DNA of 64,000 bases from an uncultured bacterium (GTDB lineage Bacteria; Bacillota_I; Bacilli_A; RF39; UBA660): NCBI GenBank assembly GCA_946560065.1, contig CAMNUE010000002.1:78950-142949 (forward strand), in the 5' to 3' direction. The position numbers were made by a program, and so were the translations under genes. The notes below the pieces were generated by a model. It was not told the origin of the DNA and did no database searches. It saw nothing but the letters and a program-made list of their open reading frames with translations. How positions within the stretch are numbered: the first letter of the stretch is position 1; the number at the start of each line of letters is the position of its first letter. Shown one piece after another: positions 8,962 to 56,536 of this stretch.

Positions 8962-9462
8962 TTAAAATTCATATTCATCTTCCTCGTCATATTCATCTTG
9001 TTCAATTCCATCTGTCATAAAAGAGACCTGGATTTCAGAATCGTTTTTTGCATTTTCAAAGTAGTTAATAATTTGACTATCTAACAAATGAAAATCTTTT
9101 TTCTTATCTTTGGACAAGTCGTCAAGCATTTCATTGGTTACTGATAAGGCAATCCGTTCGTTGACCCTCATTTCGCTTGGCTTCAATCCCATATCCAAAC
9201 ATACCATTGCCTGTCGAAAATATTTTGGATCTTCATCACGAATTGCTTTTAACTGAACGTACATAGTGTTTAACAAACTAATTCTGGCAATTTCTGATAA
9301 ATGTTGTTCCTGAACCTGATTCAATATTTTTTCATAATGTCCTGCTGGAACCTTTGTTGGTTTGTTTGTCTCTGGATCAATATAAGTGAAAGTCATATCA
9401 CTAATCGCCTTGCTCATATCTTTCACTTTCATTTTCGTAAATTCATCATACTGTTTAATCAT
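8962..9462 (-). CDS. hypothetical acidic-tailed protein
   Basis: ORF 8962..9504 trimmed to ATG 9462 (MIKQYDEF...). Ends DEYDEEDEYEF. Confidence 0.6.
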   Translation of the reverse strand: MIKQYDEFTKMKVKDMSKAISDMTFTYIDPETNKPTKVPAGHYEKILNQVQEQHLSEIARISLLNTMYVQLKAIRDEDPKYFRQAMVCLDMGLKPSEMRVNERIALSVTNEMLDDLSKDKKKDFHLLDSQIINYFENAKNDSEIQVSFMTDGIEQDEYDEEDEYEF

Positions 9463-9513
9463 AATGTTTCCCTTTCTATATATATTGGAATTATAACATA
9501 GCAAAAAATAAAC

Positions 9514-22588: not shown

Positions 22589-23683
22589 TTAAAATTCATA
22601 TTCATAATCCTCTTCTTCTATGGCATTTTCTGATTCAAAACTTTCGTATTTTACTTCCAATTTTCCATCTACTTTTTGTAAATTTTTCTCTACATTATCT
22701 TTCATTTTAGAAAACATTTCTTCATCTTTTTCGATAACGATTGAATCCCTTTTGGTGTTCATACAAGCAATCGCAAAGTTTCCAGAGCCACCGAACTGAT
22801 CGAGTAAAAGCTCATTGGGAAGTGAAATATATTCGATAATCGATTCCAATAATTCGACTGGTTTTTCTGCTTCCATGACTTTATCTTTACTATTTTTTGG
22901 CTGGAAATCGAATGCTTTAGGAAGCATTCCAGACGTTCCTTTCATGTAACAAACATCCAACCCATTCGCTAAAAGTATCTCTTTTACTTGATAAGAAGAT
23001 AGTCCTTTTACATCAATTCCATGTTCTATAGCCAGTTGAATATTTTTCTTTGCATCTAGTTTTAAACTCCTTGGCTCCCCTTTGGAAAAGATCATAATAT
23101 CTTCTGTATTGTGTGCTTTTCTTCCAGTATTCGATACAAAATTCCCTTTCACCCATGGCACTTTAGCAAAATATTTGAATCCATTTTTAACCGCCATCTG
23201 TTTTATTTCATACAAATACTGGTAGTTTACTTCGTTCTCTTCTGGTAAAAATTCGATGCAAAAAGCTCCATCTTTTAATACTCGCATCTTCTCTTTAAAG
23301 TCTTGTTCCGTGTATTTAAAAAGCTCGTACTGTGCAAACTTTCTATTCCCACCAGTTAGCGATTTAGAAAGATCGTAGGGATGATCGGTAACAATTCCAT
23401 CGATTGATTTATCCTTTATGAAAGATAAATCACGACCATTTCCGTTAATTAAAAGACAAGTTGTAACCTTTCCTTCTAATTGTTTTTCAACTTTGTAAAC
23501 GCCTCTAGCGACTCGTTTAAAGATGCCACGATCAATGCCTTCGTAGATTCTAGCACGGATTGATTCATTGTTGACAGGCATATTTTTGTGAACTTTGACA
23601 AGCTCTGTAGCCTCTTTCAAAGTGAAATTTTCATCATCCATAAAGTAGTCAAATAAACTAATTTGTATTGTATCAGCGTTCAT
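22589..23683 (-). CDS. orphan N6/N4 DNA methyltransferase (beta-class motif order)
   Basis: DPPY-type motif IDGIVTDHPYDL precedes the AdoMet motif LLDQFGGSGNF. No restriction gene is adjacent. Ends EEEDYEYEF. Confidence 0.8.
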   Translation of the reverse strand: MNADTIQISLFDYFMDDENFTLKEATELVKVHKNMPVNNESIRARIYEGIDRGIFKRVARGVYKVEKQLEGKVTTCLLINGNGRDLSFIKDKSIDGIVTDHPYDLSKSLTGGNRKFAQYELFKYTEQDFKEKMRVLKDGAFCIEFLPEENEVNYQYLYEIKQMAVKNGFKYFAKVPWVKGNFVSNTGRKAHNTEDIMIFSKGEPRSLKLDAKKNIQLAIEHGIDVKGLSSYQVKEILLANGLDVCYMKGTSGMLPKAFDFQPKNSKDKVMEAEKPVELLESIIEYISLPNELLLDQFGGSGNFAIACMNTKRDSIVIEKDEEMFSKMKDNVEKNLQKVDGKLEVKYESFESENAIEEEDYEYEF

Positions 23684-26584: not shown

Positions 26585-26800
26585 TTACTTATCAACTTCA
26601 TCAAAATCATCTTCGATGCTACGATCCTCTCCTATGGGATTATCATCAATCAAACCTAGTTGATCGAACATATCCAAAAAATCTACTCCCAATTTTTCGT
26701 TATCAATCAGCTCGTCTGTTTGTGTTTTCAATAGATAATCAAATTGTTCTAACCCCTTAAAAGATAACGCATCTTTTAGCATATCAATACATTCATCCAA
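26585..26800 (-). CDS. small acidic protein
   Basis: 71 aa with about 30% D/E. Confidence 0.5.
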   Translation of the reverse strand: MDECIDMLKDALSFKGLEQFDYLLKTQTDELIDNEKLGVDFLDMFDQLGLIDDNPIGEDRSIEDDFDEVDK

Positions 26801-26878: not shown

Positions 26879-27247
26879 TTAACAGACCTTATATTCTGTA
26901 TTAAGAAAAGATTTCATAGCTTCTTTGACGGCAAAATTTTCTATTTTATCGAATGTTTCTTCCGAAATAACACCATCAATAATGCATTCTTTCAAGTCAA
27001 AATATTCATTTTTTCTGCTTTCATGGCGTGGAAATTTTAGCACATACCAGTTCACATCATCCAACTTTTGCTTCATATTACTGACAACTTTTCGTCCTCT
27101 ATCACTCAAATCTGCTTTATTAACATGGAAATAAAATAGCAAATCATTCTTTTTTCCTACCAAATAGTAAAAGGAATTATCACACCCTTTGAATAGATAA
27201 GTGTTCTTGATGTATTCCAAATCTTCAAAAACAATCTTATTTTTCAT
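26879..27247 (-). CDS. hypothetical protein
   Basis: Trimmed to ATG 27247 (GGAG 9 nt upstream). Confidence 0.55.
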   Translation of the reverse strand: MKNKIVFEDLEYIKNTYLFKGCDNSFYYLVGKKNDLLFYFHVNKADLSDRGRKVVSNMKQKLDDVNWYVLKFPRHESRKNEYFDLKECIIDGVISEETFDKIENFAVKEAMKSFLNTEYKVC

Positions 27248-27395
27248 ACTCGTCTTCTCCCCGCTCATCTTCGTACTCGTCAATCAACTCTTCCTGGGAA
27301 TCCCACCGATCATACAATGATTCTGGTGTCCAAGGAATGTATTTATCGTTTTCCCTTACCTGTTCTTCAATCGTTTTGTTCTCTCTCGTCTTCAT
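27237..27395 (-). CDS. small acidic protein
   Basis: Trimmed to ATG 27395 (AAGGAG RBS). Ends GEDEYEK. Confidence 0.45.
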   Translation of the reverse strand: MKTRENKTIEEQVRENDKYIPWTPESLYDRWDSQEELIDEYEDERGEDEYEK

Positions 27396-27405
27396 GCTTT
27401 CTCCT

Positions 27406-28197
27406 TTATTCAAATCTTGCTTCCATGCCATAGTAAATTCCATTCGCATCCTGTAGCGGATAACAACCTCCCGTATACCCTGCTATATAAGCCATACAAG
27501 CTCCTGATACATTTTCCATGTTATATCCCTCGGAAAATAAAAATTGCTTATTTCCAGGGTTTTGCGGAGCCACTGGGGCTGGTGTAGATGGAACGACTGG
27601 TTGTGGTGTAGAAGGAACTGTCGGTACAGATTGTGGTGGTTCTACATACACTGGTTCTTCTGTTGGTGTTTGCTGTACCTCTGCAAGTTCTTCTTTCTTT
27701 TCTTCAATCGAAGTTTCTTTCTTTTCTTCTTTTTCCGTTTCTTCTTTTGGTTTATCCGAATCCTTATTTCCAACTGTAACCTGTAACAATGCAGTTGCCT
27801 TATTTCCAGCTTTATCTGTTACCATATAAGTAATCGAATACTCCCCACTCTTAGATGTATCAATGGTTGAATATTTAACTTTATTATGAAGATTACCATC
27901 CCGATCATCCTCAGCGTGACTTACATACGCCATATAATCAATCGTTTCACCTTCCTTGATCTCAATTGATTCCCTGCTTAATTCAAGAACAGGAGCGGTA
28001 TGATCGATTTTTTCATTTTGTTCTTCCATTTTTGCTACAGACTTCTTGCTTGGTTCATAAATATACTTATATCCAGTATATAAACTTCCAGATAAAACAA
28101 GTATCAAGAAGAATCCCAACAAAAGTCGTTTCCGTTTCTTCTTTTTATGAAGCCGATACAGATTCAGTAATTCTTTTTCCTTTTCAGTCAATTCCAT
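27406..28197 (-). CDS. membrane-anchored protein with Ig-like domain
   Basis: N-terminal TM. The stretch HTAPVLELSRESIEIKEGETIDYMAYVSHAEDDRDGNL...GEYSITYMVTDKAGNKATALLQVTV is like bacterial Ig-fold domains. Pro-rich linker. Confidence 0.55.
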   Translation of the reverse strand: MELTEKEKELLNLYRLHKKKKRKRLLLGFFLILVLSGSLYTGYKYIYEPSKKSVAKMEEQNEKIDHTAPVLELSRESIEIKEGETIDYMAYVSHAEDDRDGNLHNKVKYSTIDTSKSGEYSITYMVTDKAGNKATALLQVTVGNKDSDKPKEETEKEEKKETSIEEKKEELAEVQQTPTEEPVYVEPPQSVPTVPSTPQPVVPSTPAPVAPQNPGNKQFLFSEGYNMENVSGACMAYIAGYTGGCYPLQDANGIYYGMEARFE

Positions 28198-37840: not shown

Positions 37841-39844
37841 TCAAACTATCAATCGACCATATCCTTTCTTTTTAAACTCTGCCTCTTCTTCTGATGTTAC
37901 CTTTTCCATCTGGAAGCCAATCTCGCATTGAATACCAATAGTCGCCATATACTCGCTCAAAAGTTCTTTGTTTGACTTTTTTGAGAGGTGTTCTAAATGG
38001 TCGTAATACTTTGCGTGATTTTCTTCCCATTCCTTTGTCGTATGATCGCTTTTCTGTTCTGTCCACGCTTCCCATAATTCGCTGTAGCGTGGATGTTTTT
38101 TTAAATCATACAACTTAGAGTAGAATGGATCTGTACCAGACATCAATAAAATTCCGTAGCCTTTAGGAAGCTGAGAAAGCTCATCCATTGTGGCGAGTTC
38201 TCTTCCATATATATCCCAATTTTGAGAAGAAGACCCTTGTCTTCCATAAGAACGACCTGTCGATTTTTTATATAAACTTTCTTTTCCTAACATGGCACTC
38301 ATGTATTCCAAAGTTTCTTTTGACCTCGATCCTAAGAAAAACAAGTAGTCACAGCAGTCAAGACCTGTTTCCCATTCGTCCTTATAAATCTTCTTAAACT
38401 GGCTCAATGATTGCAATATCACCGTTATACCGCAGTCCAAACCACGAACATAAGCCCAATTTTCCAAAAAATTTGGGATACTTCCAAGCTGCCGAAATTC
38501 GTCTAGATATATGTTGCAAGGTATTGCAAGTCGTCCATCATTATCCCCTGCATTTTGGTCGATAATATTGAAAATTTGCGAGTACATAAGATTTGCTAAG
38601 AAGTTAAATGCCTTGTCGTTTGGATTGGTGATGATAAAATAAGCAACTTTTCCATCCTTTCGCTTGCCATTCTTGTCAGTGAGACTCAAAGGCTTTCCAA
38701 TGCGGTCTAACTCCATTGTATCGTCTACAGTCATTCTTTCTACTTCTCTTAGGTTAAATGGTGCAAGACGAGCAGAAGCGGTCATAATGATTGTGCTCAT
38801 CGTTTTTGGTGTTTTTGCAGAGACCATAAAATGCTTCCACTGCTTAACTCCAATGTTGTCTGGATCGTCCTTTTCCCATTCGATAAATTTATTCCCAAGT
38901 TCGGAATTTCCTTTTTGATCGATCTCTCCTAGACGGATCAGTTCCAAAACCTTTTTAAAATTTCTCTCCTCTTCTGGGCAACGAAATAATACATAATAGA
39001 AAAGTGCCTGCAATAGCACCATCTCTGCCTTCTCCCAGAACGGGTCACCAGAACTGCTTTCGATTGTCTCGCTTTTTGTGGAGTTCATAATTGTATTGAT
39101 GAGCGACATGACATCATCTTCTGCAATATTTCCACCAGTCGTTTCCAATCGCTCCATCATTTCTTTTCGATCCTCATCACTATCACAATCAATCAAATAA
39201 GCTTCTGACGGAAGTTTTCTTATATAACTAAACGGATTGTAGTGATCGCTTCGCCATTTCGATTTGACATTTAAGACTTTAATATCATAACCTTGTTGCT
39301 TTAGTGAATGACCTGTAGCACGTAAAAGCTCTTCCTTCGGATCTGTTACAATAATGGTTTCATCATCTGCACTCAGAATATTTGGAATCAAAAAGTAGCG
39401 ACTTTTTCCCGTACCAGGACGACCAATGATAGCAAGATTTCGATTTCGTCCAGTTATCTTCATATCTTTCGATAAGATTTCTGTTTCGGTAAAAATCCAA
39501 TTTTTTGTGAATATCTTTTCTCTCAGTTTTTTTGTAAAATCTGGTGTATTCCATTTCGCACTACCAAAAGCTGTATCCTGGCGATTTTTCTTATTTTGAG
39601 ATACGAGAGTTTCGTAACACATCCAGGTAAAAAGTGATAAAGCTAATCCAATAAAAATCGACTTTTCATTAAATATAATTGGTGCAAAAGAAAATAGCTG
39701 ATCGCTCGCTTGACTTAATGCTTCAAACGACCATTCACCATCATTTAATTCCACACAGGTTCCGATTCTAAGCCCGATATAAAAAGCCAAAACAACGAAA
39801 ATCAATAGCAGCACATAATTATTTTGGTTTCTTCTTGGTTTCAT
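37841..39844 (-). CDS. virD4: VirD4/TraG-type type IV coupling protein
   Basis: Two N-terminal TMs; Walker A AIIGRPGTGKSRYF; Walker B NIYLDEFRQLG. Confidence 0.9.
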   Translation of the reverse strand: MKPRRNQNNYVLLLIFVVLAFYIGLRIGTCVELNDGEWSFEALSQASDQLFSFAPIIFNEKSIFIGLALSLFTWMCYETLVSQNKKNRQDTAFGSAKWNTPDFTKKLREKIFTKNWIFTETEILSKDMKITGRNRNLAIIGRPGTGKSRYFLIPNILSADDETIIVTDPKEELLRATGHSLKQQGYDIKVLNVKSKWRSDHYNPFSYIRKLPSEAYLIDCDSDEDRKEMMERLETTGGNIAEDDVMSLINTIMNSTKSETIESSSGDPFWEKAEMVLLQALFYYVLFRCPEEERNFKKVLELIRLGEIDQKGNSELGNKFIEWEKDDPDNIGVKQWKHFMVSAKTPKTMSTIIMTASARLAPFNLREVERMTVDDTMELDRIGKPLSLTDKNGKRKDGKVAYFIITNPNDKAFNFLANLMYSQIFNIIDQNAGDNDGRLAIPCNIYLDEFRQLGSIPNFLENWAYVRGLDCGITVILQSLSQFKKIYKDEWETGLDCCDYLFFLGSRSKETLEYMSAMLGKESLYKKSTGRSYGRQGSSSQNWDIYGRELATMDELSQLPKGYGILLMSGTDPFYSKLYDLKKHPRYSELWEAWTEQKSDHTTKEWEENHAKYYDHLEHLSKKSNKELLSEYMATIGIQCEIGFQMEKVTSEEEAEFKKKGYGRLIV

Positions 39845-41097
39845 TTTTCTAACTCACCATCTTCCAAATTCAGTGGAACGCTATCATTTTCCATATTGTT
39901 ATCTTTCGCCCACGAATCATTGGTTTTATCCTCTCGCTCTAAACCTTTTTGCGAATTTTGTTGTTCGTGGGCTTGCGCATTTTTTGATGCAACATTCTTT
40001 GCTACTTCTTTCGCAGTATTCATTGCCATCGACACAGTTACAGAACCATCAGGATTATGGATTGCAATATAATCTTTGCCGTCATATTCACTTCTGAATT
40101 TTTCCATTTCCTTTGTCTCAGTGATACGTATCGTACCTATCGCATCATCATCATTTTTTTTCTGGTCCAATGTTTCTCCGCCGTTTGCTCCATACTCGAC
40201 AATTCGTTTTTCTCCATCCCCGAATATTTTCTTGGCTTCTTCACGGTAACGCTGACGGTACCAAAGCATCATGTTATTGTCATCATACACTTTGGCACTA
40301 CATGGAAGGCTTTCGCAAATATCGGAATATTTTTCGCAGAAAGTTTCTTTAGAAATAATCTGTTTGCAAACATTTTCTTTTGTAATTTCTCGATCGATTC
40401 CATATTCACGTCCTGCTTGCAATTCTTTTACTTCTAGTTTATCAGGCTGAGCTGTGAAATCTTCTTTCGCTTTTTCATCGATAACTTCACTTCCACCGTT
40501 TTCTTTCGCTTCTTCTGCAATACGTTTCTTTACAACACTTTGAAGCCATTCATTGAAAGTCTCTGTATGTTTGGCATTACACTTGATACGGTAACACCTA
40601 TCCACATTCCCATCTTTTTTTCTTTGAACTTCTTGAAGTGCGATCTTACTTTTGAGTTCTTCAACTTTGCCGTTGCACACTTGATTCACGATTCCGACTT
40701 TATTAAACCGTTCAGCTCGTCGTTCCCATTTTCTGAGCTGGATTTCATCTTTTGCAAGGTCTTCCTGCTCTTTAATGGACATTCCACGGCTCATTGGTTC
40801 ACCGTTTGCATCCACTTCGTATGCAACTGCCAAAATATCGTTTTCCATACAAAATGCAATTCCATCTCTTAACTCATCCTCTGTTAGCTGTGGCGATTTG
40901 ACAAGCGAATCATTAATTCCATCCTGCTTGATTGCCTTAATTGGATCCATGTGTCTGTATTTATATTTTTTGACTTGTTTGTTTATCCACTCTCTCGTAG
41001 GCTTTATGACATGTCGGTTAATATATTGAAGGAAGCGTAGCCCCCACCAAATTGATTTCTGTACATTTTCTACATCATGTTTTGTGTCAGCACTCAT
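39841..41097 (-). CDS. hypothetical protein coupled between primase and T4CP
   Basis: 418 aa with 4-nt overlaps on both sides. No motif recognised. Confidence 0.6.
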   Translation of the reverse strand: MSADTKHDVENVQKSIWWGLRFLQYINRHVIKPTREWINKQVKKYKYRHMDPIKAIKQDGINDSLVKSPQLTEDELRDGIAFCMENDILAVAYEVDANGEPMSRGMSIKEQEDLAKDEIQLRKWERRAERFNKVGIVNQVCNGKVEELKSKIALQEVQRKKDGNVDRCYRIKCNAKHTETFNEWLQSVVKKRIAEEAKENGGSEVIDEKAKEDFTAQPDKLEVKELQAGREYGIDREITKENVCKQIISKETFCEKYSDICESLPCSAKVYDDNNMMLWYRQRYREEAKKIFGDGEKRIVEYGANGGETLDQKKNDDDAIGTIRITETKEMEKFRSEYDGKDYIAIHNPDGSVTVSMAMNTAKEVAKNVASKNAQAHEQQNSQKGLEREDKTNDSWAKDNNMENDSVPLNLEDGELEK

Positions 41098-44000
41098 GCA
41101 TATTCAACTCCTCTTTCGTTAAAATCATTATAAATATTTTCTATATCCATCGCACCCTTCAAAGATTCTTGGTACATTGGATCAATTTCGTTTGCCAAAA
41201 CCACAGAATCATATTCACCGTTGTTTTTGTAGCTGGAATACTCTTTATTTCTAGTTGTCATCAAAACAACATTCTCGTCATCCAAACGAAGCAGATCGTT
41301 CTTGCTGATAGCAACATATCCATAGGTACGATTTCGATATATTGGAATCCCATAAAAACCATCTTTCAATTCCATCAAATCTGATTCACGAACTGTTACA
41401 TAAGCGCTTTTTTCCATTGGAATATCAGGTATATGTTTATCCAGGTCAGAATAGTTTAATTTGCCAATTACTGCCAATTCTTTTCCTTCCTGTTTCATCA
41501 GCATGATATTGGACATAATTTGTCCTTGATACATGCCATCAATTTTTGGAGTGATCGATACTTTGTTTTTCCATTTATTATGGTAAAAACTACCGTTTGG
41601 AATGTAGAGTACATATCCCTCTACAGAACTTTTCAAATTAAGATAAGTTGCTTCTTTTTGACTTATCCGTTTTGCGGATACAACGTAAGCACCTGATTCT
41701 GGCTTTTTTAATTCCTTCACAAAAGGTAACTGCAATTTCCGTTTTCCTTTTGATATTTGTTTTACTGATTCCTGTTCTGGCAATTCTTGTTTTAGGGAAC
41801 TCAGTTCCTTTTCTTGTCTTAATAAATCGCTAGATTTCTCTTCCCAATAATGCATCAATTCATCCCCGTTTATCTTTTCATTTTTTTCTCCTGATTTGCT
41901 ATAAATCTGATACTCTTTTCCCGTATCGATCCAGGCTTTCATAACATCTCCTGATTTCGACCAATTTATGTTCTTCTTGCTCACATACATATATTTGGTA
42001 GCTCTGGTATTGGGAATCCTCACAAAGTATGCAGATTCGGTTTCTTTATGAAGCAAACTTCGATGAATAGTAAATGCTTTTGTTTCACCTTTTTTCACTT
42101 TTTCTTGTTTCATAGGTTCCTGATTTTGGGAACTCAGTTCCTTTTTTTTCTTTGACTTATCTTCCCAATAATCCATCAGTTGATTGCCTTTTAAATTTTC
42201 TTTTTTTGTACCTGCTTTATCATAAATTTTATACATATAATCCGAATCAATTATGGTACTCAATATGTCATTTTCTTTCGACCATTTGGTATGCTTTTTA
42301 CTCAAATACATATACTTGGTAGCTCCCGTATTTGGGATTCTTACAAAATAAGAACGATCAGTTTCGTTTACAATCAACGAATGATGTACTGTAAAAGTAC
42401 GTGTTTCCTGCTTTGATGCATTTACTGATTTACTATTTTCTACAGCACTTTTCTGTTCCTGCAAAACAGGTTCTTTCTGTTCTTTTTCTGGTTTAATTTG
42501 AGGCTTTATTACGTTTTCTTGAGTCAGTTTGAGAATGTCACTTTTGTTATCGAAAATCAAGATTTCTTTATATCCCGTGCCAGAAACATTTTTAAACTTT
42601 GGATCGACAGCAAAAAGCATCTCTTTTGGGAACACATTCGAATAAGAGAAAAAATGCATTTCCTCTTTCATAAAAAAACGACCTTTTAATCCTTCCACCA
42701 ATGCTTGTGACTGCGGATAGTCTTGAATCCCTACGATGGCATCATAATCATTGATGTCATTCAAAATATAGAGTTCATCCACATTGTCATACTGTGAACG
42801 TTCCTCAGCCGAATAAGTTTCTTCAAACTGTTTAATAATCAAACGTTTTTGTTCCTCGGTTAGTTGAAGTCTCGCCCTTTGTCCTTTTGCATTTTGTACA
42901 TAGCATTTATCAAATAAATTCTCATGTTTAAAAGTATGAACCTCTTCAAATTTTTTCCATTCCGCATCTTGGCGTATACTCTCTCTTACTAACTCCAAAA
43001 TATTGATTCGGTCCATTTCTTCGTTGATATAAGTTGATGGATCTTCAACAAAGATAGCAAGTGCTCGATCTTTGATTTCATCTGCATGTTGATTAAAGTA
43101 ATCCAAATAAGTTTGATTGGCATTTTTCTTTATGCAACGTTCCACGTTGGCGATCACGTAACGATTGAGCAAATTATCTTTCAGGGTATCGACTGCCTTC
43201 TTTTCCATGATTGGAACAGGATGCAAAATATCTTCCAGCTCTTTCTTCGTGAAATCACTTTTTGCATATACCAATTCTTTGAATAAGGCTTCATCAAACG
43301 TATTATTGATAATTCCATCTTCTTTGGCATTGTCATACGCTTGCTTGATATTCACCACATTCATTTCTTTGGTTAAATATTTGTTTTCAAAAAGGAACTC
43401 AGTTCCTGTTTTTTTCACCGCTGAAAGATCCTCTTCTTTTACGCCAACATTGGCAAAATCCCATAAATCCTTACTTTCAATTTCATCACTTAACCGCATT
43501 CGTTCTTTGACTTTGGATAGATCGACGACACTGACTTGAAAGCCTTTTTTCAAAAGTTCAGGTACTTCTTTTACCATAGCTGCTTTTCCAGCCTTGTCGT
43601 TATCCCTCATCAAAACAATTTCGCAATTCAGGCGCTCGATCATAGATAACTGTTCATCGCTTAGTGATGTTCCCATAGATGCAACAATATTTTGAATTCC
43701 AACTTTCTTTCCACCAGCGACATCCATAAACCCTTCAACTACATAGATTGCGTTTCCGTAACTATATTTTTTCGCTGATTCGTAATTGTATAGAATGTTG
43801 TTCTTCTTAAATAATTCCGTTGATGCAGAGTGTAGATACTTTGGTTCCTCTCCATTCATTGCACGTCCGCTGAATGCTACTGTATTTCCTCTTTCGTCTT
43901 TAATTGGAATTAAGATTCGGTCTCCAAAAAAAGGACGATAGTTTCCTTTTTCGTCTTGCCATAAAAAACCGATTTCTACCAAATCGTCTAGCGGAAAAGT

Positions 44001-44570
44001 ACGGTTCTGAATCCAGTTCTCCACTTGATGTTTTGGCAGATAACCAAAATCCATTTCTGCCATTAAAGATTTATCAAAACCTCGTGATTCCAGGTAGTTG
44101 CGTGCTTTATCTTCTACAGATGAGAGCAACTGATAACTTCCCGTTTTCATTAATCGATCAAGAAGTTCCAAAAGCGATTTTTCTTTTTCCGAATATGTAT
44201 GTGCATTGTGCACATATTGGTTATCATTTTTCCTTTTATCTAACATGGATAAATCGACATTCAAACCGCATATTTCATTCACTTTTTTCATTGCGTCTAA
44301 GGTTTCAAATTTCGTATTTCCAAGCACTTTTTCTTCATACTTCTGAACAAATGTAATTGCATTCCCCTTTTCTCCGCAAACAAAACAATTCCAAATCTTA
44401 TCATCTTTTGTGATGCTAAGTGATGGATCGTGATCGGTATGAAATGGACAGATGGTTTTATTCTTGTTGACAGAAAGCCCATATGATTCTAGCACCATGC
44501 GGACGCTTGCTTGTTCCAATATCTCTTGATATTTTTGTCCAAATAGTGTTTTGGGTTTCGTTTTTGCCAT
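41094..44570 (-). CDS. DnaG-like primase (CHC2 zinc finger + Toprim) with four C-terminal repeat domains
   Basis: CPFHTDHDPSLSI..WNCFVCGEKGNAITFV; Toprim YVVEGFMDV...MRDNDKAG. Tandem ~85-100-aa repeats lie in the last ~420 aa. Confidence 0.9.
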   Translation of the reverse strand: MAKTKPKTLFGQKYQEILEQASVRMVLESYGLSVNKNKTICPFHTDHDPSLSITKDDKIWNCFVCGEKGNAITFVQKYEEKVLGNTKFETLDAMKKVNEICGLNVDLSMLDKRKNDNQYVHNAHTYSEKEKSLLELLDRLMKTGSYQLLSSVEDKARNYLESRGFDKSLMAEMDFGYLPKHQVENWIQNRTFPLDDLVEIGFLWQDEKGNYRPFFGDRILIPIKDERGNTVAFSGRAMNGEEPKYLHSASTELFKKNNILYNYESAKKYSYGNAIYVVEGFMDVAGGKKVGIQNIVASMGTSLSDEQLSMIERLNCEIVLMRDNDKAGKAAMVKEVPELLKKGFQVSVVDLSKVKERMRLSDEIESKDLWDFANVGVKEEDLSAVKKTGTEFLFENKYLTKEMNVVNIKQAYDNAKEDGIINNTFDEALFKELVYAKSDFTKKELEDILHPVPIMEKKAVDTLKDNLLNRYVIANVERCIKKNANQTYLDYFNQHADEIKDRALAIFVEDPSTYINEEMDRINILELVRESIRQDAEWKKFEEVHTFKHENLFDKCYVQNAKGQRARLQLTEEQKRLIIKQFEETYSAEERSQYDNVDELYILNDINDYDAIVGIQDYPQSQALVEGLKGRFFMKEEMHFFSYSNVFPKEMLFAVDPKFKNVSGTGYKEILIFDNKSDILKLTQENVIKPQIKPEKEQKEPVLQEQKSAVENSKSVNASKQETRTFTVHHSLIVNETDRSYFVRIPNTGATKYMYLSKKHTKWSKENDILSTIIDSDYMYKIYDKAGTKKENLKGNQLMDYWEDKSKKKKELSSQNQEPMKQEKVKKGETKAFTIHRSLLHKETESAYFVRIPNTRATKYMYVSKKNINWSKSGDVMKAWIDTGKEYQIYSKSGEKNEKINGDELMHYWEEKSSDLLRQEKELSSLKQELPEQESVKQISKGKRKLQLPFVKELKKPESGAYVVSAKRISQKEATYLNLKSSVEGYVLYIPNGSFYHNKWKNKVSITPKIDGMYQGQIMSNIMLMKQEGKELAVIGKLNYSDLDKHIPDIPMEKSAYVTVRESDLMELKDGFYGIPIYRNRTYGYVAISKNDLLRLDDENVVLMTTRNKEYSSYKNNGEYDSVVLANEIDPMYQESLKGAMDIENIYNDFNERGVEYA
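41796..41808. repeat. GGAACTNAGTTCC palindrome, copy 4 (inside primase CDS)
   Basis: Encodes K-E-L-S-S (aag gaa ctg agt tcc). Confidence 0.9.
42130..42142. repeat. GGAACTNAGTTCC palindrome, copy 5 (inside primase CDS)
   Basis: Encodes K-E-L-S-S in the same frame as copy 4. Confidence 0.9.
43394..43406. repeat. GGAACTNAGTTCC palindrome, copy 6 (inside primase CDS, other frame)
   Basis: Encodes G-T-E-F (gga act gag ttc c). Flanked by A7 and T5. Confidence 0.9.
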
Positions 44571-51579: not shown

Positions 51580-52467
51580 CTATTTTTTTGCTCCACAAGA
51601 GCAAGTATAACCAATCAAGACTTCCTCGTCATAGGCTTCCTCATCAATAACATATCGAGTTCCATATTCTGCGGGGTGTTCAATTGCTTCAGTTCCAGTT
51701 TTGATTTGATTCCATTGACTATGGTATCCACCATTTTCACCAACTAACATATGGTTCTTTATATGCTCACCAATACCACTTTGACCTAAATCGGTAATAT
51801 CAGCACCACAAGCATTGCAAATCTCTCTTTCGACCATTTCATAAATTGGAATACTTTCTGTCCATGCTTCTTTAATCACATACTGTTCGTTATGTCCTTT
51901 TTCTTCATGATGAACAGTTTCATATTCCGCTACCCAATCATGAATATGTGGCACTTCAATAGGCTCATCTTGTACATCTTTTAAACCATACCATCCGATT
52001 CCTTCTGCTCTCCAACCAATCGAAACAAGAAAATCATTTTCTTGTTTGTTTGTTGTATAGTTGTGGGTGCCTGTTTCTGCATTCGGATTATATTGACGAT
52101 ACAGCGGTACTCCTTGGTCTTCGTCTGAATACCACCCAATTCCTTCATAATTCCATCCAATAGATGCCAAATAATTTTTTTCATTTGCATCCAAAGTATA
52201 GTGATGATCGCCAGAATTTGGATTGTATAAGCGATATACTGGAATGTCTGATAACTTTGGCGCTATCCACCCAATTCCTTCATAATTCCATCCGATAGAT
52301 GCCAAATGATTCTTTTCATTTGTATCCCCAGTATAGAAGTGTTCTCCAGAATGTGGATTATACAATCGGTGCATTTCAATCGAATCTACTTCTGCTTTCA
52401 CAGGTGTAGTTCCTAACAAACAACAAATTAACATAATCAGCAAAACCAATGATGTATTCTTTCTCAT
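51580..52467 (-). CDS. secreted protein: three YRLYNP..GDH.YT..E...L...GW.YEGIGW repeats plus a Cys/His-rich C-terminal domain
   Basis: Signal peptide. Repeats HRLYNPHSGEHFYTGDTNEKNHLASIGWNYEGIGW x3. The C-terminal ~125 aa are shared with 52495..53583. Confidence 0.65.
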   Translation of the reverse strand: MRKNTSLVLLIMLICCLLGTTPVKAEVDSIEMHRLYNPHSGEHFYTGDTNEKNHLASIGWNYEGIGWIAPKLSDIPVYRLYNPNSGDHHYTLDANEKNYLASIGWNYEGIGWYSDEDQGVPLYRQYNPNAETGTHNYTTNKQENDFLVSIGWRAEGIGWYGLKDVQDEPIEVPHIHDWVAEYETVHHEEKGHNEQYVIKEAWTESIPIYEMVEREICNACGADITDLGQSGIGEHIKNHMLVGENGGYHSQWNQIKTGTEAIEHPAEYGTRYVIDEEAYDEEVLIGYTCSCGAKK

Positions 52468-52494: not shown

Positions 52495-53583
52495 TTATTT
52501 TGTTGCTCCACACGAACACTTATAGCCAGCAGGTACTTGTTCATCATAAGCCGCTTGATCGACTACATATCGGGTTCCATATTCCGCTGGATGATTGACA
52601 ATATTTGTACCTGTTTGGACTTGATTCCATTGACTATGGTATCCGCCATTTTCCCCAGCTAACATATGGTTCTTTATGTGCTCGCCAATACCACCTTGAC
52701 CTAGATCAGTAATATCAGCACCACAAGCATTACAAATTTCTCTTTCGACCATTTCATAAATCGGAACACTCTCCGTCCATGCTTCTTTAATCACATATTG
52801 TTCATTATGTCCTTTTTCAGGATGATGAACAGTCGTATATTGTTGCACCCAGTTATGAGTATGACTTGGTGTACTTGGTTTTTGAGAACCTTGATTGCTG
52901 TTCCCACCTGTACTTGGTTTCGATGTGCTGCCTCCAGTGCTTGGCTTCGATCCAGTATTACTTCCTGTATTGTTTCCAGAACCGCTATTAGAACCTGTAC
53001 TATTATTATTTCCAGATGCAACGCTTCCATTTCCGTTACCTGATTCAGAATCTTCACTACCAGAATTATCTGTAGTAGGTTTCTGTTCGTCATCTTTTGA
53101 TTCTTCCTCTTTCTTTTCGGAATCTTCCTGTTTTTTGTCTTCTTCTACAGTCTCATTCGTAATCACATCATGTCCATCTTTTTTCAATTCTTCGGCTCTT
53201 TCAGGAGATACAACTTCAATTTGTACCTCCTTTTCTACAGGATCCATTTTCGAATCGACTGGCACGATTGTATAAACGATTTCATACGTTCCTTCTTTTT
53301 CATAATTGATATTGGATGTATCTACTAAAACTTCTTTGACAACTTTCTTATCATAAGTGATTCCTTTTAGGAAGTCAGTTCCTTTTGTTTTCACTTCGAT
53401 ATACAGTTTATCCAGTTTTAGACCTTTTACGTCTTTAAGCAAATCCACTTTTTCAGTTTCCACTGTCTTATCATCTTTGTTGGAATTGTTAGCCCAAATT
53501 ACAGTTCCAACACCAGCACCACCAATTAAAACAACACCTGCAATGATTAACGCAATCATCCTTTTTTTCTTTTTTTGTTCCAT
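52495..53583 (-). CDS. membrane-anchored protein: Ig-like domain, S/G/N-rich linker, same Cys/His-rich C-terminal domain
   Basis: Trimmed to ATG 53583. TM IALIIAGVVLIGGAGVGTVIW. C-terminal domain HTHNWVQQYTTVHHPEKGHNEQYVIKEAW...CNACGADIT...CSCGATK. Confidence 0.65.
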   Translation of the reverse strand: MEQKKKKRMIALIIAGVVLIGGAGVGTVIWANNSNKDDKTVETEKVDLLKDVKGLKLDKLYIEVKTKGTDFLKGITYDKKVVKEVLVDTSNINYEKEGTYEIVYTIVPVDSKMDPVEKEVQIEVVSPERAEELKKDGHDVITNETVEEDKKQEDSEKKEEESKDDEQKPTTDNSGSEDSESGNGNGSVASGNNNSTGSNSGSGNNTGSNTGSKPSTGGSTSKPSTGGNSNQGSQKPSTPSHTHNWVQQYTTVHHPEKGHNEQYVIKEAWTESVPIYEMVEREICNACGADITDLGQGGIGEHIKNHMLAGENGGYHSQWNQVQTGTNIVNHPAEYGTRYVVDQAAYDEQVPAGYKCSCGATK

Positions 53584-53647
53584 AAAAATATACACTCCTT
53601 CGTTAATCACATTATACTATAAAAATGCAAGTTTTTTACATTCATTT

Positions 53648-54055
53648 TTACATTTCATAATCTTCGTCAAGTTCTTGGCTTTCCTCTTGATTATATATTT
53701 CTCCATCTTCTTTTATCAGTTCCAACTCCTTAGAGTCATTCCCTTCATATTTTCTCAAATTGGAAAGCATCTCTTTTAAATCTGTAAGCATTTTTGTGTC
53801 TTCTGTTGTCACATCCTCGATACTGCCACCAAATTGATTATCTAGTTCGATATACTCGCCGAAATCAATCGTAGGATCATCTAAAAGTTCAATGTAATGT
53901 GTCCAACAATCAAAATCAATCATATCTGCTCTCATTAAATAGCAAGCATAAAGCTGTTCCTGGTATTTTTGGATATGTGGATCGTTTTCATCCACTATCT
54001 CAGATTTGTAGTATTCCATTGCTCTTTCAAAGTTATGCTTTAATATTTCGCTCAT
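53648..54055 (-). CDS. hypothetical highly acidic protein
   Basis: Trimmed to ATG 54055 (GGAGAGG 8 nt upstream). Ends ELDEDYEM. Confidence 0.6.
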   Translation of the reverse strand: MSEILKHNFERAMEYYKSEIVDENDPHIQKYQEQLYACYLMRADMIDFDCWTHYIELLDDPTIDFGEYIELDNQFGGSIEDVTTEDTKMLTDLKEMLSNLRKYEGNDSKELELIKEDGEIYNQEESQELDEDYEM

Positions 54056-54088
54056 AAATAACACCTCTCCATTCATTTTAAAGTAAAA

Positions 54089-54101
54089 GGAACTCAATTC
54101 C
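54089..54101. repeat. GGAACTNAGTTCC palindrome, copy 8 (variant GGAACTCAATTCC)
   Basis: 33 nt before ATG 54055. Confidence 0.7.
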
Positions 54102-54225
54102 TTTTATAAAATATTCTGGTTCACAAAGCTCTGAACCAAGTATTCTCTACCCTTTGGAGTGATAGAATACAAAGAATCATTTTTACTTTCTTTTTGAACC
54201 AAATTAAATCCTTTATGCTTTTAAA

Positions 54226-55209
54226 TTAAGCATATTCAAGTTCTTCTTCTCTTTCCATAATTTCTTGTCGTGCTTGCTCTGGATCTTCGGCAAACAGTAC
54301 ATAAAATTCACCATAAAAGGTCGCTACAGTATCACAATCCCCCTTTCCTAGTTCATAATCATTGATTTCAATGAGTGTGTCAATATCTAAAATACCATAT
54401 CGATCATGTATCAACTCTACATCGTGAATCAACTGATTATAGTCCTTCATTGTATATGTACCATCTTCAAATTCTGCGGGTTCCAAAAACCATGTATAAT
54501 TATCGCTTGCATCTGCGGTTTGGTACATATCTTTCATGATTTTTCCAAATTTATTTATATCTAATTTTTTGTTTCTTTGATTTTGTGCGGTTCTTCTCAC
54601 AGCTTCCATTCTATCCTGCGATAATATTTCTAAATATTCCTGATTCGTTGTTCCCTGTGCAAGCGTCATTTTCTCCTGGAATGATAAAGTATTTATAGAT
54701 AAGCCATCATTCATTTTTTCAATTGTCTTTTCAAAGATCCATTCCTTACACTTTCTTTCTAACTTTTTAAAGTCACAAAAATATCGTCCAATTTTTGCTT
54801 TATTTCTTAGGACATTTGAGTAAACAGAATGAGCTTTTATTTGAATGGCTTCACTATGTTCATTACAAAAATTAAGTTCTTTGCTCATCAAAATGCGATA
54901 ATCTTGATCTTCTTCTTTCCATATCTGTTTTAATCCGATTTCTGAATCTGGAACAGGAAACATAAAGGAAAAACGAAGACTCCCTACAGGAATCCCACCA
55001 ACACGAATAACATAGTTGCTTGAAACATCTCTATTGAAAGAAGAAACTGGCACATAATACTTCATCCCATTTATTTTAAAAATGACTCCACACAAGAATT
55101 TTTGGTGAGAGTCATATACAATATTCGGCACTTTTGGATCAAACTTTTTTAAGTAATCTATGTAATCAATATTAACATCATAAAAACCAATTCTATTATT
55201 TCTCTTCAT
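54226..55209 (-). CDS. ToxN/AbiQ-family (type III toxin) domain fused to a ~155-aa C-terminal domain
   Basis: Trimmed to ATG 55209 (AAAGGA RBS). RIGFYDVNIDYIDYLKKFDPKVPN...GVIFKINGMKYYVPVSSF...LRFSFMFPVP...FCDFKKLERKCKEW. Ends EREEELEYA. Confidence 0.7.
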   Translation of the reverse strand: MKRNNRIGFYDVNIDYIDYLKKFDPKVPNIVYDSHQKFLCGVIFKINGMKYYVPVSSFNRDVSSNYVIRVGGIPVGSLRFSFMFPVPDSEIGLKQIWKEEDQDYRILMSKELNFCNEHSEAIQIKAHSVYSNVLRNKAKIGRYFCDFKKLERKCKEWIFEKTIEKMNDGLSINTLSFQEKMTLAQGTTNQEYLEILSQDRMEAVRRTAQNQRNKKLDINKFGKIMKDMYQTADASDNYTWFLEPAEFEDGTYTMKDYNQLIHDVELIHDRYGILDIDTLIEINDYELGKGDCDTVATFYGEFYVLFAEDPEQARQEIMEREEELEYA

Positions 55210-55230: not shown

Positions 55231-55260
55231 AAAAAGAGCCATACATTTCTGTATGACCCT
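55231..55260 (-). terminator. terminator/attenuator hairpin 22 nt before the ToxN-like start
   Basis: GGGUCAUACA-GAAA-UGUAUGGCUC followed by UUUUUG. Confidence 0.65.
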
Positions 55261-55436
55261 ATGTTTTTTTGCTTTGCAATTCCATCACCGCTTTTAGACG
55301 AGCAGGCACCGTCATTTTGTCAGAATTTTGATGGACAAGGAACGCTAACCTTACATTACAACTCCCATTTTCATGTTTGTACATGTCTGACTCGGCTGAG
55401 AAACACCAGACAATTTAGCGGAGAACAACTGTCCGC
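55261..55436 (-). ncRNA. candidate ~175-nt structured leader/sRNA upstream of the ToxN-like gene
   Basis: Bounded by the promoter at 55443-55471 and the terminator at 55231-55260. GC-richer than its flanks; local stems GCGGA/UCCGC and GUCUG/CAGAC. No tandem repeats and no convincing ORF. Confidence 0.45.
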
Positions 55437-55442
55437 ATTCAT

Positions 55443-55471
55443 AATATACCATATTTTAATGTTCTTGACAA
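55443..55471 (-). promoter_or_regulatory. sigma-A-type promoter with extended -10
   Basis: TTGTCA-N17-TATATT, with TGG immediately 5' of the -10. Confidence 0.6.
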
Positions 55472-55505
55472 TACCTATGCTTGTTGCCCTCCAATTTGTT
55501 AAAAA

Positions 55506-55518
55506 GGAACTGAGTTCC
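55506..55518. repeat. GGAACTNAGTTCC palindrome, copy 9
   Basis: aaaaaGGAACTGAGTTCCtttt, 2 nt after the stop at 55521. Confidence 0.9.
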
Positions 55519-55520
55519 TT

Positions 55521-56480
55521 TTACCAATCCATCTCATAGTCGTCTTCTATTTCAATATCAAGAGATGCTTCTTCGTTGTTCTGTTTCTCTTCATTTAAAA
55601 GTTCTATTGATTCCTCAAACACTCCAAACGTCTCTTGGTCTCTCTCATTAGAATAATCAACACCCTGCTTTAAATTCTCCCCTTTTGTTATTTCCATTGT
55701 TTTTGACATAATCCCTAATCCTGCGGTTACAATGTCTGGGCTTCCCTGAATGATTTCTTCAATATCATTTAGAAACGAATCACCAAAGCTATGTTCCTGC
55801 TGTGGATTACATTTAATCATTGATGGATCATGTACTTCGATTTTAACTTTCGATTCTTGAATACGAGGAATATCATCAGTATCACCTCGACCTTTTGCAA
55901 TAGCAAGTGCCCTCTCTTTCATTGATTCAAATTCTAAGGCATTAAAATAATTACATTTCGAAATATTCGAATTGTAAAAATGTTCGATAAAATAGTTTGT
56001 TCCGCCATGATTGTGACCTAATCCAAAAGTTATGACAACATATCGTGGTTCTGATATTTGTTCATAGATTACACCATCAATCATTACATACCGATTCAAT
56101 TTTTCTTCCAAAAATTTCATTGCTTTTTCTTGTGTATGAAATTGTTTCCCCATATAGGCGAGTTCACTGTTGATTGAACGACTTAAATCATCTATGCTTG
56201 ATTTTTCTAATATCAGTGCCCCAGCTCGTTCTTTCATTTCAATATACAAATTTTCTTTATCAGTCAAATATTCCGTTTCAACAATTCCAAACTGGCTTTC
56301 TCCATCTTCTCCAAGATATGATTGATAGTCATGTATTTTGAGAGCTAAAGAAAAATCATCACGTTTTTTTTCCTTTAATTCAGCTTGCACAACTTCCTCG
56401 ACTTGCCGTTGTCGTGGAATACGATGTCTTTTACTTGGCAAATATTCTTCTTCATAAACAATAACCGCATCAAATTTCAT
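55521..56480 (-). CDS. hypothetical protein
   Basis: Trimmed to ATG 56480, because the ORF-track start 56519 lies inside a terminator hairpin. Ends IEDDYEMDW. Confidence 0.6.
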   Translation of the reverse strand: MKFDAVIVYEEEYLPSKRHRIPRQRQVEEVVQAELKEKKRDDFSLALKIHDYQSYLGEDGESQFGIVETEYLTDKENLYIEMKERAGALILEKSSIDDLSRSINSELAYMGKQFHTQEKAMKFLEEKLNRYVMIDGVIYEQISEPRYVVITFGLGHNHGGTNYFIEHFYNSNISKCNYFNALEFESMKERALAIAKGRGDTDDIPRIQESKVKIEVHDPSMIKCNPQQEHSFGDSFLNDIEEIIQGSPDIVTAGLGIMSKTMEITKGENLKQGVDYSNERDQETFGVFEESIELLNEEKQNNEEASLDIEIEDDYEMDW

Positions 56481-56499
56481 TTCTATTTTCACCGTCCTT

Positions 56500-56536
56500 A
56501 AAAAAGAAAGACCATCCATTTCTGAATGATCTTTCT
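56500..56536 (-). terminator. terminator/attenuator hairpin homologous to 55231-55260
   Basis: AGAAAGAUCAUUC-AGAA-AUGGAUGGUCUUUCU followed by U6. It shares the core UCAU(A/U)CAGAAAUG(U/G)AUGG. Confidence 0.6.

Follow-up and report, generated by a model that had tools for sequence, protein, structure and literature searches.

A ToxN/AbiQ-type toxin with a modular C-terminal extension and a plasmid-wide acidic tail on a conjugative plasmid

A gene encoding an extended ToxN/AbiQ-type toxin, here called ToxN-ext, was analyzed in a 64,000-nt stretch of DNA from an uncultured bacterium (GTDB lineage Bacteria; Bacillota_I; Bacilli_A; RF39; UBA660), corresponding to positions 78,950 to 142,949 of the forward strand of contig CAMNUE010000002.1 (GenBank assembly GCA_946560065.1). 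The whole stretch is referred to as the window, and it represents a conjugative plasmid. The best explanation of the data, to which we assign an even chance, is that a type III toxin-antitoxin (TA) locus was recruited into the cargo-protein repertoire of this plasmid, with the leader RNA upstream of the toxin gene acting as antitoxin and the acidic C-terminal tail of the toxin acting as a recognition tag. This reading builds on the observed domain identities, the layout of the locus, its conservation, the modularity of the C-terminal extension and the enrichment of the tail among the proteins of the plasmid. Throughout, L-numbers denote related loci and P-numbers related proteins, as labelled in the analysis.

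ToxN-ext carries a ToxN/AbiQ domain

The ToxN-ext open reading frame (ORF) was located at 54226-55209 on the minus strand, encoding 327 aa and ending in a TAA stop at 54226-54228. Its ATG was placed at 55209, with an AAAGGA ribosome-binding site 8 nt upstream. An alternative in-frame start at 55242 was rejected; it overlaps the upstream terminator and is used by no homologue, all of which open with MK(R/K)NN. The protein was divided as follows, pLDDT being the predicted local distance difference test score of the structure models.

54736..55209, minus strand: ToxN/AbiQ endoribonuclease domain, aa 1-158, net charge +8, recognised by Pfam, PADLOC, solved chains and fold
54574..54735, minus strand: helical linker, aa 159-212, EWIFEKTIEKMNDGLSINTLSFQEKMTL...QEYLEILSQDRMEAVRR, pLDDT 54-79
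54283..54573, minus strand: acidic alpha/beta module, aa 213-309, ~100 aa, an uncharacterised domain of conjugative-element proteins
54229..54282, minus strand: C-terminal acidic helix and tail, aa 310-327, PEQARQEIMEREEELEYA; the protein ends ...ELEYA

An earlier note on this sequence had assigned the N-terminal half to ToxN/AbiQ on the basis of motifs, all of which (GFYDVNIDYIDYLKKFDPKV, GMKYYVPVSS, FSFMFPVP and CDFKKLERKC) were found in the ORF as described. Profile and structure searches, set beforehand as the test of this assignment, both recovered ToxN. Residues 8-157 matched Pfam PF13958 ToxN_toxin over profile positions 2-159 of 159 (E 4e-36, 125 bits, cut-off 25). The PADLOC AbiQ profile was matched with E 5e-32, and four solved ToxN/AbiQ chains were matched at the sequence level with E 1e-16 to 2e-11. 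In the full-length AlphaFold (AF2) model, pLDDT was ~90 across the ToxN region. Foldseek comparison of this region gave a target-normalised template modelling (TM) score of 0.81 with 4ATO, at a root-mean-square deviation of 2.3 A, and TM scores of 0.77 with 2XD0, 0.76 with 7D8O and 0.78 with 4GLK.

The active site of ToxN(Pa) is formed by Tyr29, Lys33, Thr52, Ser53 and Lys55 (PMC5086642). K37, S56 and S57 of ToxN-ext align with Lys33, Thr52 and Ser53, respectively, and AbiQ likewise has a serine (Ser51) at the Thr52 position (PMC5086642). K37 and S57 were nearly invariant in a 30-sequence alignment. The Tyr29 position is occupied by His35, as it is by a histidine in ToxN(Bt) (4ATO alignment); Lys55 falls in an alignment gap, and the nearby Arg60 aligns with a lysine of ToxN(Bt). 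Judged from these active-site matches, the ToxN domain looks catalytically competent. The 62 complete stand-alone ToxN relatives, taken from metagenomes, were nearly all 156-216 aa long, so an extension such as that of ToxN-ext is unusual for the family.

The locus keeps a type III layout with a conserved leader

Upstream of the toxin ORF, the following features were delimited.

55443..55471, minus strand: sigma-70-like promoter, TTGTCA / 17-nt spacer / TATATT with upstream TG; consensus match only
55261..55436, minus strand: non-coding leader, candidate RNA antitoxin (~180-200 nt), with no tandem repeat, resembling a degenerate ToxI-type derivative
55235..55260, minus strand: intrinsic terminator at the leader/toxin boundary, 11-bp stem, GAAA loop and U-run, kept in the extended clade
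55352..55408, minus strand: unit A, resembling a ToxI pseudoknot unit expanded by a 26-nt insertion that contains hairpin CATGTACAAACATG, GGTGTTTCTCAGCC...AAAATGGGAGTTGTAATG; weak evidence
55265..55340, minus strand: unit B, a partial decayed unit with helix TCCATCA/TGATGGA, small hairpin TGCAAAGCA and A-run, with no recognisable pseudoknot partner (inverted repeat I2)

The single promoter, non-coding RNA, intrinsic terminator and toxin ORF follow each other in the order of a type III system, and this order was conserved in homologous loci. The promoter-like site was the top scorer of the region, with 10 of 12 consensus matches plus the TG, and its -10 element was invariant in five homologous loci. 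The terminator, GUCAUACAGAAAUGUAUGGCU in the window, was almost unchanged in L015 (GTCATACAGAAATGTATGGCT), and a close variant was found in L009 and L019 (GTCATGTA...TACATGGCT, also written GUCAUGUA...UACAUGGCU); in all of these a T/U-run follows. In the alignment of homologous loci, substitutions in the terminator stem preserved pairing.

Among the window, L001, L010/L011/L016 and L012, the leader was 87-94% identical, versus 78-84% for the toxin coding sequence, and mean column identity across five aligned loci was 91%. A protein antitoxin encoded by a 41-aa leader ORF (55259-55384) was considered and rejected because frameshifts break the frame in L001, L010 and L012. No Rfam family reached its gathering threshold anywhere in the window. 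For the toxin region this null is uninformative, since even the canonical arrays of this ToxN clade go undetected with the Rfam ToxI model.

A covariance model, R1, was built from the 70-nt units of the extended clade described below; it recognises canonical units of 36 nt in an unrelated locus with E 5e-6. In a search of 401 nt, its top window match was unit A, at the right spot and on the right strand, with a weak score of 8.1 bits (E 0.053). Unit B was the second match (6.2 bits, E 0.19) and is not significant alone. Unit A reads GGUGUUUCUCAGCC, followed by the 26-nt insert with hairpin CAUGUACAAACAUG and then by AAAAUGGGAGUUGUAAUG. Its flanks were identical to a canonical L079 unit at 23 of 30 positions (manual count), and canonical units, those of L044 and L079 among them, match its 3' tail, UUGUAAUG. 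The 3' strand of helix P2 varies as G(G/A)GA(G/U/A) among homologues opposite an invariant UUCUC, so that at least four of the five pairs stay paired. In addition, the window leader shares AGUCAGACA, AAAAUG(G/C)GAG and GUGCCUGCUCG with the third unit of L015.

Conservation, a graded series in relatives and residual homology are three lines that suggest a functional leader descended from a ToxI-type array. Given the weak R1 match, we rate it as probable that the leader RNA still serves as antitoxin, in a degenerate form devoid of repeats.

Antitoxin arrays in relatives form a graded series

Known toxIN loci carry ~2-5.6 direct repeats of 31-62 nt directly upstream of the toxin (PMC3401426, Table 2). 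Such a tandem array is absent from the window leader, and it is present in most of the stand-alone relatives scanned and at the P0007 gene in L005. In most of the stand-alone relatives scanned, two to three copies of a 36-41-nt unit were found upstream of the toxin gene. The canonical units fit an H-type pseudoknot in which GGUG...CACC encloses UUCGC, which pairs with a downstream GCGAA. Covariation agreed with this fold, with 87% of cells paired versus 19-55% when the partner was slid; 27 cells were changed on both sides, and 0 of 500 shuffles scored as high.

In the extended P0008-P0020 group (L009, L015, L019 and others), two to three non-identical units of 66-77 nt were found, each corresponding to the canonical pseudoknot with two extra covarying hairpins in its long loop. 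These units were missed by Tandem Repeats Finder (TRF) because of indels. They may be the same as the ~60-nt unalignable ToxI sequences that were tabulated without comment in 2012, together with toxIN toxins of up to 288 aa (PMC3401426). Expanded ToxI-type units were delimited in three loci.

L015, 2728-2955: expanded ToxI-type units
L009, 3837-3976: expanded ToxI-type units
L019, 2308-2448: expanded ToxI-type units

A second ToxN-ext gene, encoding P0007 (286 aa), lies directly downstream of the orthologue of the window gene in L001/L005 (one contig). The ToxN domain of P0007 is ~40% identical to that of the window and its C-terminal module ~71%, and the gene stands behind a perfect 40-nt x 3.2 array with terminator. 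The C-terminal module and a ToxI array can therefore coexist in one locus. The two tandem genes (L001 3646-5827) differ in their antitoxin region, one having a degenerate leader and the other the perfect 40-nt x 3.2 array; the tandem suggests exchange of modules between paralogous toxins.

As a separate observation, a second ToxI-like array of another sequence type (AAAAAAGTTGGAATACCCTTGCCA.AGTAGGG) was seen upstream of the toxin's own array at L015 2517-2570 and L029 ~470-550. It has no toxin gene of its own, scored 26.5 bits with Rfam ToxI (below the gathering threshold) and could be a remnant or a decoy array.

The C-terminal extension is composed of a linker, an acidic module and a tail

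The ~170 residues that follow the ToxN domain are an extra region, as the earlier note had stated, and residues 159-327 had no match in Pfam (E up to 1, BID included), PADLOC, NCBIfam or PHROGs. They do not form the one domain that had been supposed, since linker, module and tail shuffle independently. The linker was ~50% identical in the P0008-P0020 group, where it then runs into unrelated C-terminal modules, and was absent from P0006, P0007 and P0021, all of which share the module of aa 213-309. At least four unrelated sets of C-terminal modules follow the linker in the P0008-P0020 proteins, which reach 526 aa and ~4 modules; the alternative modules of P0011-P0019 had no Pfam match. The ToxN core accepts at least five different C-terminal modules, with the tail retained. 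A weak resemblance was also noted between the linker (…TNQEYLEILSQDRMEAVRRTAQ…) and the LRV/HEAT-like repeat proteins P0097 and P0106 (profile search, E 4e-7 and 2.5e-4); the linker may be a single LRV/HEAT-like repeat unit.

A word-index homology search with the C-terminal half returned ToxN fusions only. An exhaustive profile search with linker and module gave 44 cluster representatives and revealed the module elsewhere. It occurs alone as proteins of 100-125 aa, for example in Ileibacterium valens, and in larger proteins its position may be N-terminal, central or C-terminal. It is joined to LPD1 and to a CLCA_X-like metallopeptidase region in P0093 and to MuF_C in P0078. Genes for the stand-alone module adjoin relaxase and LPD1 genes, or sit in a type IV secretion system (T4SS) cluster beside an ArdC-MPTase-PolyVal gene. 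Because it turns up in proteins that lack ToxN and beside unrelated domains, the module is probably not a regulator dedicated to ToxN; it behaves as one more domain of the polyvalent-protein repertoire.

In the full-length AF2 model the module was of low confidence (pLDDT 35-70). A deeper alignment of the module alone (34 sequences) made the fold confident, yielding a small alpha/beta domain with a pLDDT of 88.7 and a predicted TM score of 0.80. Foldseek of this model against PDB and BFVD recovered no neighbour (best E 0.25-0.9, TM < 0.4), and winged-helix-like matches with TM ~0.3 were rejected as noise. With a confident fold, a wide distribution and no family or structural neighbour, the module is a candidate new anti-defence or adaptor domain.

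These data bear on the possibility that the acidic half mimics RNA and folds onto the positive ToxN groove as a built-in protein antitoxin, the upstream RNA being only a leader or regulatory element. The complementary charge (+8 for the ToxN domain versus -19 for aa 213-327, module and tail together) and the leader without tandem repeats would fit such an arrangement. Nevertheless, the same module follows the ToxN domain of P0007, which has its perfect array, the leader is under stronger constraint than the gene, module and tail are found on proteins without RNase, and the full-length AF2 model does not place the module confidently against ToxN. We consider cis-inhibition very unlikely. Replacement of the RNA antitoxin by the extension is accordingly not supported by the sequence comparisons, and of the three roles that the earlier note had proposed for the extension (sensor, intramolecular inhibitor or delivery domain) the inhibitor fared worst, given the type III layout that is kept, the module found elsewhere beside a ToxI-type array and the module found without ToxN.

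The acidic tail is shared with unrelated proteins of the plasmid

The acidic-aromatic tail, which had been noticed before on other proteins of the element, proved to be real and statistically strong. Tails were scored as at least four D/E in the last eight residues, and the expectation was derived from the internal composition of the same proteins. Thirteen of the 66 non-overlapping minus-strand ORFs of the window had such a tail, versus 1.9 expected; 0 of 200,000 simulations reached 13 (P < 5e-6). Examples of tail-bearing ORFs are listed.

8962-9504, minus strand: tail-bearing ORF
22589-23683, minus strand: tail-bearing ORF, the methylase
26585-26800, minus strand: tail-bearing ORF
27237-27449, minus strand: tail-bearing ORF
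53648-54097, minus strand: tail-bearing ORF
55521-56519, minus strand: tail-bearing ORF

Both genes flanking the toxin gene encode tailed proteins (...EDDYEMDW and ...DEDYEM), as do the gene for the LPD1 protein and several small ORFs. The N6/N4 methylase ends in ...EEEDYEYEF and reaches the threshold; the DnaG-type primase ends in ...ERGVEYA, like the ...ELEYA of ToxN-ext, but lies below four of eight. The tails of the window lineage are of the ...DYEM- or ...EYEYE-type, and cargo genes of L001 and L012 are tailed as well. In L009 and L015, neighbouring proteins (MuF_C, LPD11 and small proteins) end in ...EEDLDE(I/L)EK or close variants.

Among the extended ToxNs, 14 of 20 had the tail, the exceptions being mostly fragments, versus 2 of 62 stand-alone ToxNs. 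All complete extended members end acidic (ELEYA, LDYEMG, EYEYE, DEFDEIEK, EDLDELEK, EDLDEIEM) except the chimeric-looking P0016. The tail keeps the extreme C-terminus whether the module comes first, in the middle or last. At L079 1564-2169, an otherwise ordinary ToxN of ~183 aa, whose array is 38 nt x 2 and whose context does not look like a plasmid, ends in ...EEDEYDMEI; a short ToxN can thus bear an acidic tail directly.

That non-homologous proteins share a short C-terminal motif, specific to the lineage, implies one reader common to them all. In favour of a T4SS in this role, the signals of such systems usually lie at the C-terminus and show a charge bias, the Glu-rich Dot/Icm signal being the nearest analogue. 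Acidic C-terminal tails also serve in docking, as in the C-terminal tail of SSB (the protein that binds single-stranded DNA) and the TraD tail that binds TraM. The tail may thus be a degron or a docking peptide for another hub (SSB-like or a partition protein) that keeps establishment proteins short-lived or co-localised, and a single common reader would fit this as well. A rapidly degraded toxin would, however, defeat the logic of a TA system. Furthermore, the tail-bearing set together with the primase (primase, methylase, RNase, MuF_C and LPD proteins, LPD11 among them) matches the functions of proteins predicted or shown to travel with DNA (PMC5512222; PMC11288057; PMC5675462). A degron or docking role is in our judgement unlikely.

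As a further alternative, the locus may be a conventional toxIN module of the plasmid, serving addiction or abortive infection and remaining in the donor, with the C-terminal region as a sensor, regulatory or oligomerisation domain tuning release of the RNase and with tails unrelated to transfer. Such a role is possible, though we hold it with reserve. The complete type III layout is kept, ToxIN and AbiQ are established plasmid stabilisers and abortive-infection systems (PMC5086642; PMC4615649), structured C-terminal extensions occur on TenpN toxins with no link to secretion (PMC12283969), and ToxN lengths of up to 288 aa were already on record in 2012 (PMC3401426). On the other hand, module and tail are not specific to ToxN, the module being found alone or with LPD1 or MuF_C in conjugative elements and the tail on many unrelated proteins of the same plasmids. 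The presence of at least five interchangeable modules with the tail kept suits modular cargo better than a dedicated sensor.

Proposed mechanism

If the locus was recruited as cargo, its leader RNA would derive from an array of tandem ToxI-type pseudoknot repeats that decayed until an RNA without repeats was left, with one recognisable expanded unit. This RNA would be cleaved and bound by ToxN and would keep the RNase inactive in plasmid-bearing cells, and the terminator would set the surplus of RNA relative to toxin, as it does in classical ToxIN. A single plasmid factor, most plausibly the type IV coupling machinery, would recognise the tail as a common tag, and ToxN-ext would be handed to recipient cells along with the DNA. 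T4SS substrates are translocated unfolded, according to the title of PMC5826034, so a transferred ToxN would arrive without RNA; it would then act on recipient RNA until the incoming plasmid transcribed the leader. The acidic module would add a further effector or adaptor head, independent of the first.

For polyvalent proteins that have RNase heads, entry together with the DNA has been predicted (PMC5512222), and pKM101 transfers CcdB and SrnB (PMC11288057). VbhT, another FicT and a PezT are TA toxins with a C-terminal BID fusion on conjugative plasmids, and transfer of VbhT was measured (PMC5675462). For ToxN-ext, we put forward tentatively that the acidic-hydrophobic C-terminal motif is a conjugative T4SS export signal defining the co-transferred set. 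ToxN would then enter the recipient without its RNA antitoxin, and would blunt defences or arrest or kill recipients in which plasmid establishment and transcription of the leader fail (injected addiction). The forms that this signal would take, ...(D/E)(D/E)Y-E-x in the window lineage and ...EEDLDE(I/L)EK in the sister lineage, are proposed with similar caution. The consequence of transfer for the recipient has several options, such as helping establishment or punishing plasmid-destroying recipients. The delivery domain of the earlier note thus comes closest to the evidence as we infer it; the shared element, however, is the short tail and not the whole extension.

Several points weigh against recruitment of the locus as tagged cargo with an RNA antitoxin. 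Tandem repeats are a defining feature of type III antitoxins, and neither tandem nor degenerate repeats were found in the leader by TRF, by find_repeats or by self-alignment, the best self-alignment lying within the shuffle range. A search with R1 over all 64 kb with default filters gave no window match, and the score of unit A would fail correction for the whole window. The leaders of the 325-329-aa clade comprise four distinct, closely related sequences, too few for covariation. The relaxase and the type IV coupling protein (T4CP) of the window have no acidic tail. In the papers searched, no acidic C-terminal signal is described for Gram-positive conjugation. Finally, stand-alone proteins of module plus tail are odd if the module is merely a carrier.

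The conjugative element and its surroundings

The earlier note had placed the gene on a conjugative element, and the window indeed encodes a Rep3 initiator, ParA, a MobA/VirD2-type relaxase, a T4CP and a VirB4-like ATPase, together with a lysozyme/CHAP hydrolase, sortase-type pilins, the DnaG-type primase, the LPD1 protein and the N6/N4 methylase. Almost all genes are on the minus strand. The T4CP lies at 37841-39844 and the primase at 41094-44570. No DNA or protein match to the element was found among PLSDB plasmids. Close homologues of the toxin came from Erysipelotrichales, namely an uncultured Dubosiella, a mouse-gut metagenome-assembled genome and Erysipelotrichaceae bacterium OPF54. In the latter, the orthologous locus (L011; BQKD01000001.1, 3012481-3019452) lies inside a 3.1-Mb contig; the element may therefore also occur integrated in the chromosome, or the assembly may have joined it. 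A conserved protein partner beside the toxin was sought and rejected: the genes that follow it are not the same in the window, L001, L012, L009 and L015, and both L009 and L015 lack the upstream DUF8359 gene.

The palindrome AAAGGAACTCAGTTCCTTT was found at 11 window sites (19 nt each, up to three mismatches) versus 0.02 expected. Most copies are intergenic with a T-run after them, and the toxIN-like cassette lies between two of them. The primase ORF contains three copies, and a 371-aa ORF (52495-53610) contains one. Similar palindromes were seen 5' of the toxin promoter in L009 and L015. The family could represent terminators, operators or cassette boundaries.

55503..55521, no strand assigned: palindrome AAAGGAACTCAGTTCCTTT followed by a T-run (minus strand), likely terminator or boundary element, at the upstream gene's stop, immediately 5' of the cassette promoter (inverted repeat I5)
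54086..54104, no strand assigned: second palindrome copy, AAAGGAATTGAGTTCCTTT, with T-run, downstream boundary or terminator, ~120 nt past the toxin stop
Start positions of all copies: 15027, 33195, 41793, 42126, 43391, 44590, 53367, 54086, 55503, 56712, 63875

Two further features were recorded. The adjacent ORFs 51580-52467 and 52495-53610 (minus strand) share a His/Cys-rich C-terminal domain of ~110 aa, H.H.W...HH.EKGHNEQYVIKEAWTES.PIYEMVEREICNACGADITDLG...CSCGA.K, and differ in their N-terminal parts, with DUF5648-type repeats in one and low-complexity Ser/Gly/Asn sequence in the other. The Rep3 gene of the related plasmid L005 is closely followed downstream by a RAGATH-18 RNA (477-549; 62.6 bits, exceeding the gathering threshold).

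Comparison with known systems

Type III toxins are usually viewed as stand-alone RNases of ~170 aa restrained by tandem-repeat RNAs. The clade described here departs from this view by its interchangeable C-terminal modules and by its location among the cargo proteins of gut Erysipelotrichales plasmids. It also indicates that an antitoxin array can expand into ~70-nt units with inserted hairpins and apparently also degenerate into an RNA without repeats. Both the ToxN domain and the layout of type III systems were known before, and ToxNs of greater length, units of 60 nt and TenpNs with extensions and non-identical repeats have been mentioned in passing (PMC3401426; PMC12283969). What is new is the resolution of the extension into a linker, an acidic domain that is widespread and unannotated, and a tail found across the plasmid, and the tie of ToxN to the world of polyvalent and cargo proteins. 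The series from canonical over expanded to non-repetitive antitoxin RNA, as it appears from sequence comparison, is also new, as is the tail as a testable hypothesis of a Gram-positive T4SS substrate tag. If the tail is a secretion tag, it would offer a first sequence-level handle on what Gram-positive conjugation exports, usable for substrate prediction across genomes.

The ToxIN/AbiQ-antiQ systems (ToxN of Pectobacterium atrosepticum, Bacillus thuringiensis and E. coli; lactococcal AbiQ) share with ToxN-ext the toxin fold and family, the nucleophile region, the order of promoter, RNA, terminator and toxin and a plasmid-borne location, and near relatives of ToxN-ext have 36-41-nt pseudoknot repeats. 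ToxN-ext differs from them in being twice the usual length, with linker, acidic module and tail. In its clade the leader lacks tandem repeats, and a single expanded unit is weakly recognisable in it; the sister clade has units of 66-77 nt with two inserted hairpins.

TenpN toxins with N- or C-terminal extensions (PMC12283969) are likewise type III toxins with structured extensions and with longer, non-identical antitoxin repeats. They belong to a different toxin family (tenpIN), and their extensions are tied neither to a shared tail nor to cargo modules of conjugative elements.

The polyvalent proteins of phages and conjugative elements (Iyer et al. 2017, PMC5512222), among them those whose RNase heads are of the PBECR/MuF_C type, resemble ToxN-ext in the modular shuffling of effectors on conjugative elements and in the combination of an RNase head with domains of unknown function. 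ToxN-ext is multidomain, within the 2-15 domains by which these proteins are defined, its C-terminal module shares polypeptides with LPD1 and MuF_C, and the window itself encodes an LPD1 protein. Proteins of the ToxN-ext type are nevertheless small, with 2-4 modules, ToxN is absent from the domains named in PMC5512222 (0 occurrences), and each has its own acidic tail, a feature not described there. A literature search found no ToxN fusion described among polyvalent proteins. Their delivery with DNA is a prediction in the source paper as well (PMC5512222).

VbhT/VbhA of Bartonella pVbh and the BID-carrying FicT and PezT (Harms et al. 2017, PMC5675462) are TA toxins of conjugative plasmids that have a C-terminal extension, as ToxN-ext does, and an antitoxin retained in cis, as ToxN-ext probably does. 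The extension of VbhT makes the toxin a conjugative T4SS substrate, and such fusions arose repeatedly in different toxin families (PMC5675462). ToxN-ext differs in being a type III RNase with a probable RNA antitoxin, and not a type II FIC or PezT toxin, and in its Gram-positive host. It has no BID domain; its putative signal is acidic, in place of BID with a positively charged tail. If the proposal holds, the idea of TA toxins as conjugative effectors, so far described for type II systems in Proteobacteria, would extend to a system with an RNA antitoxin.

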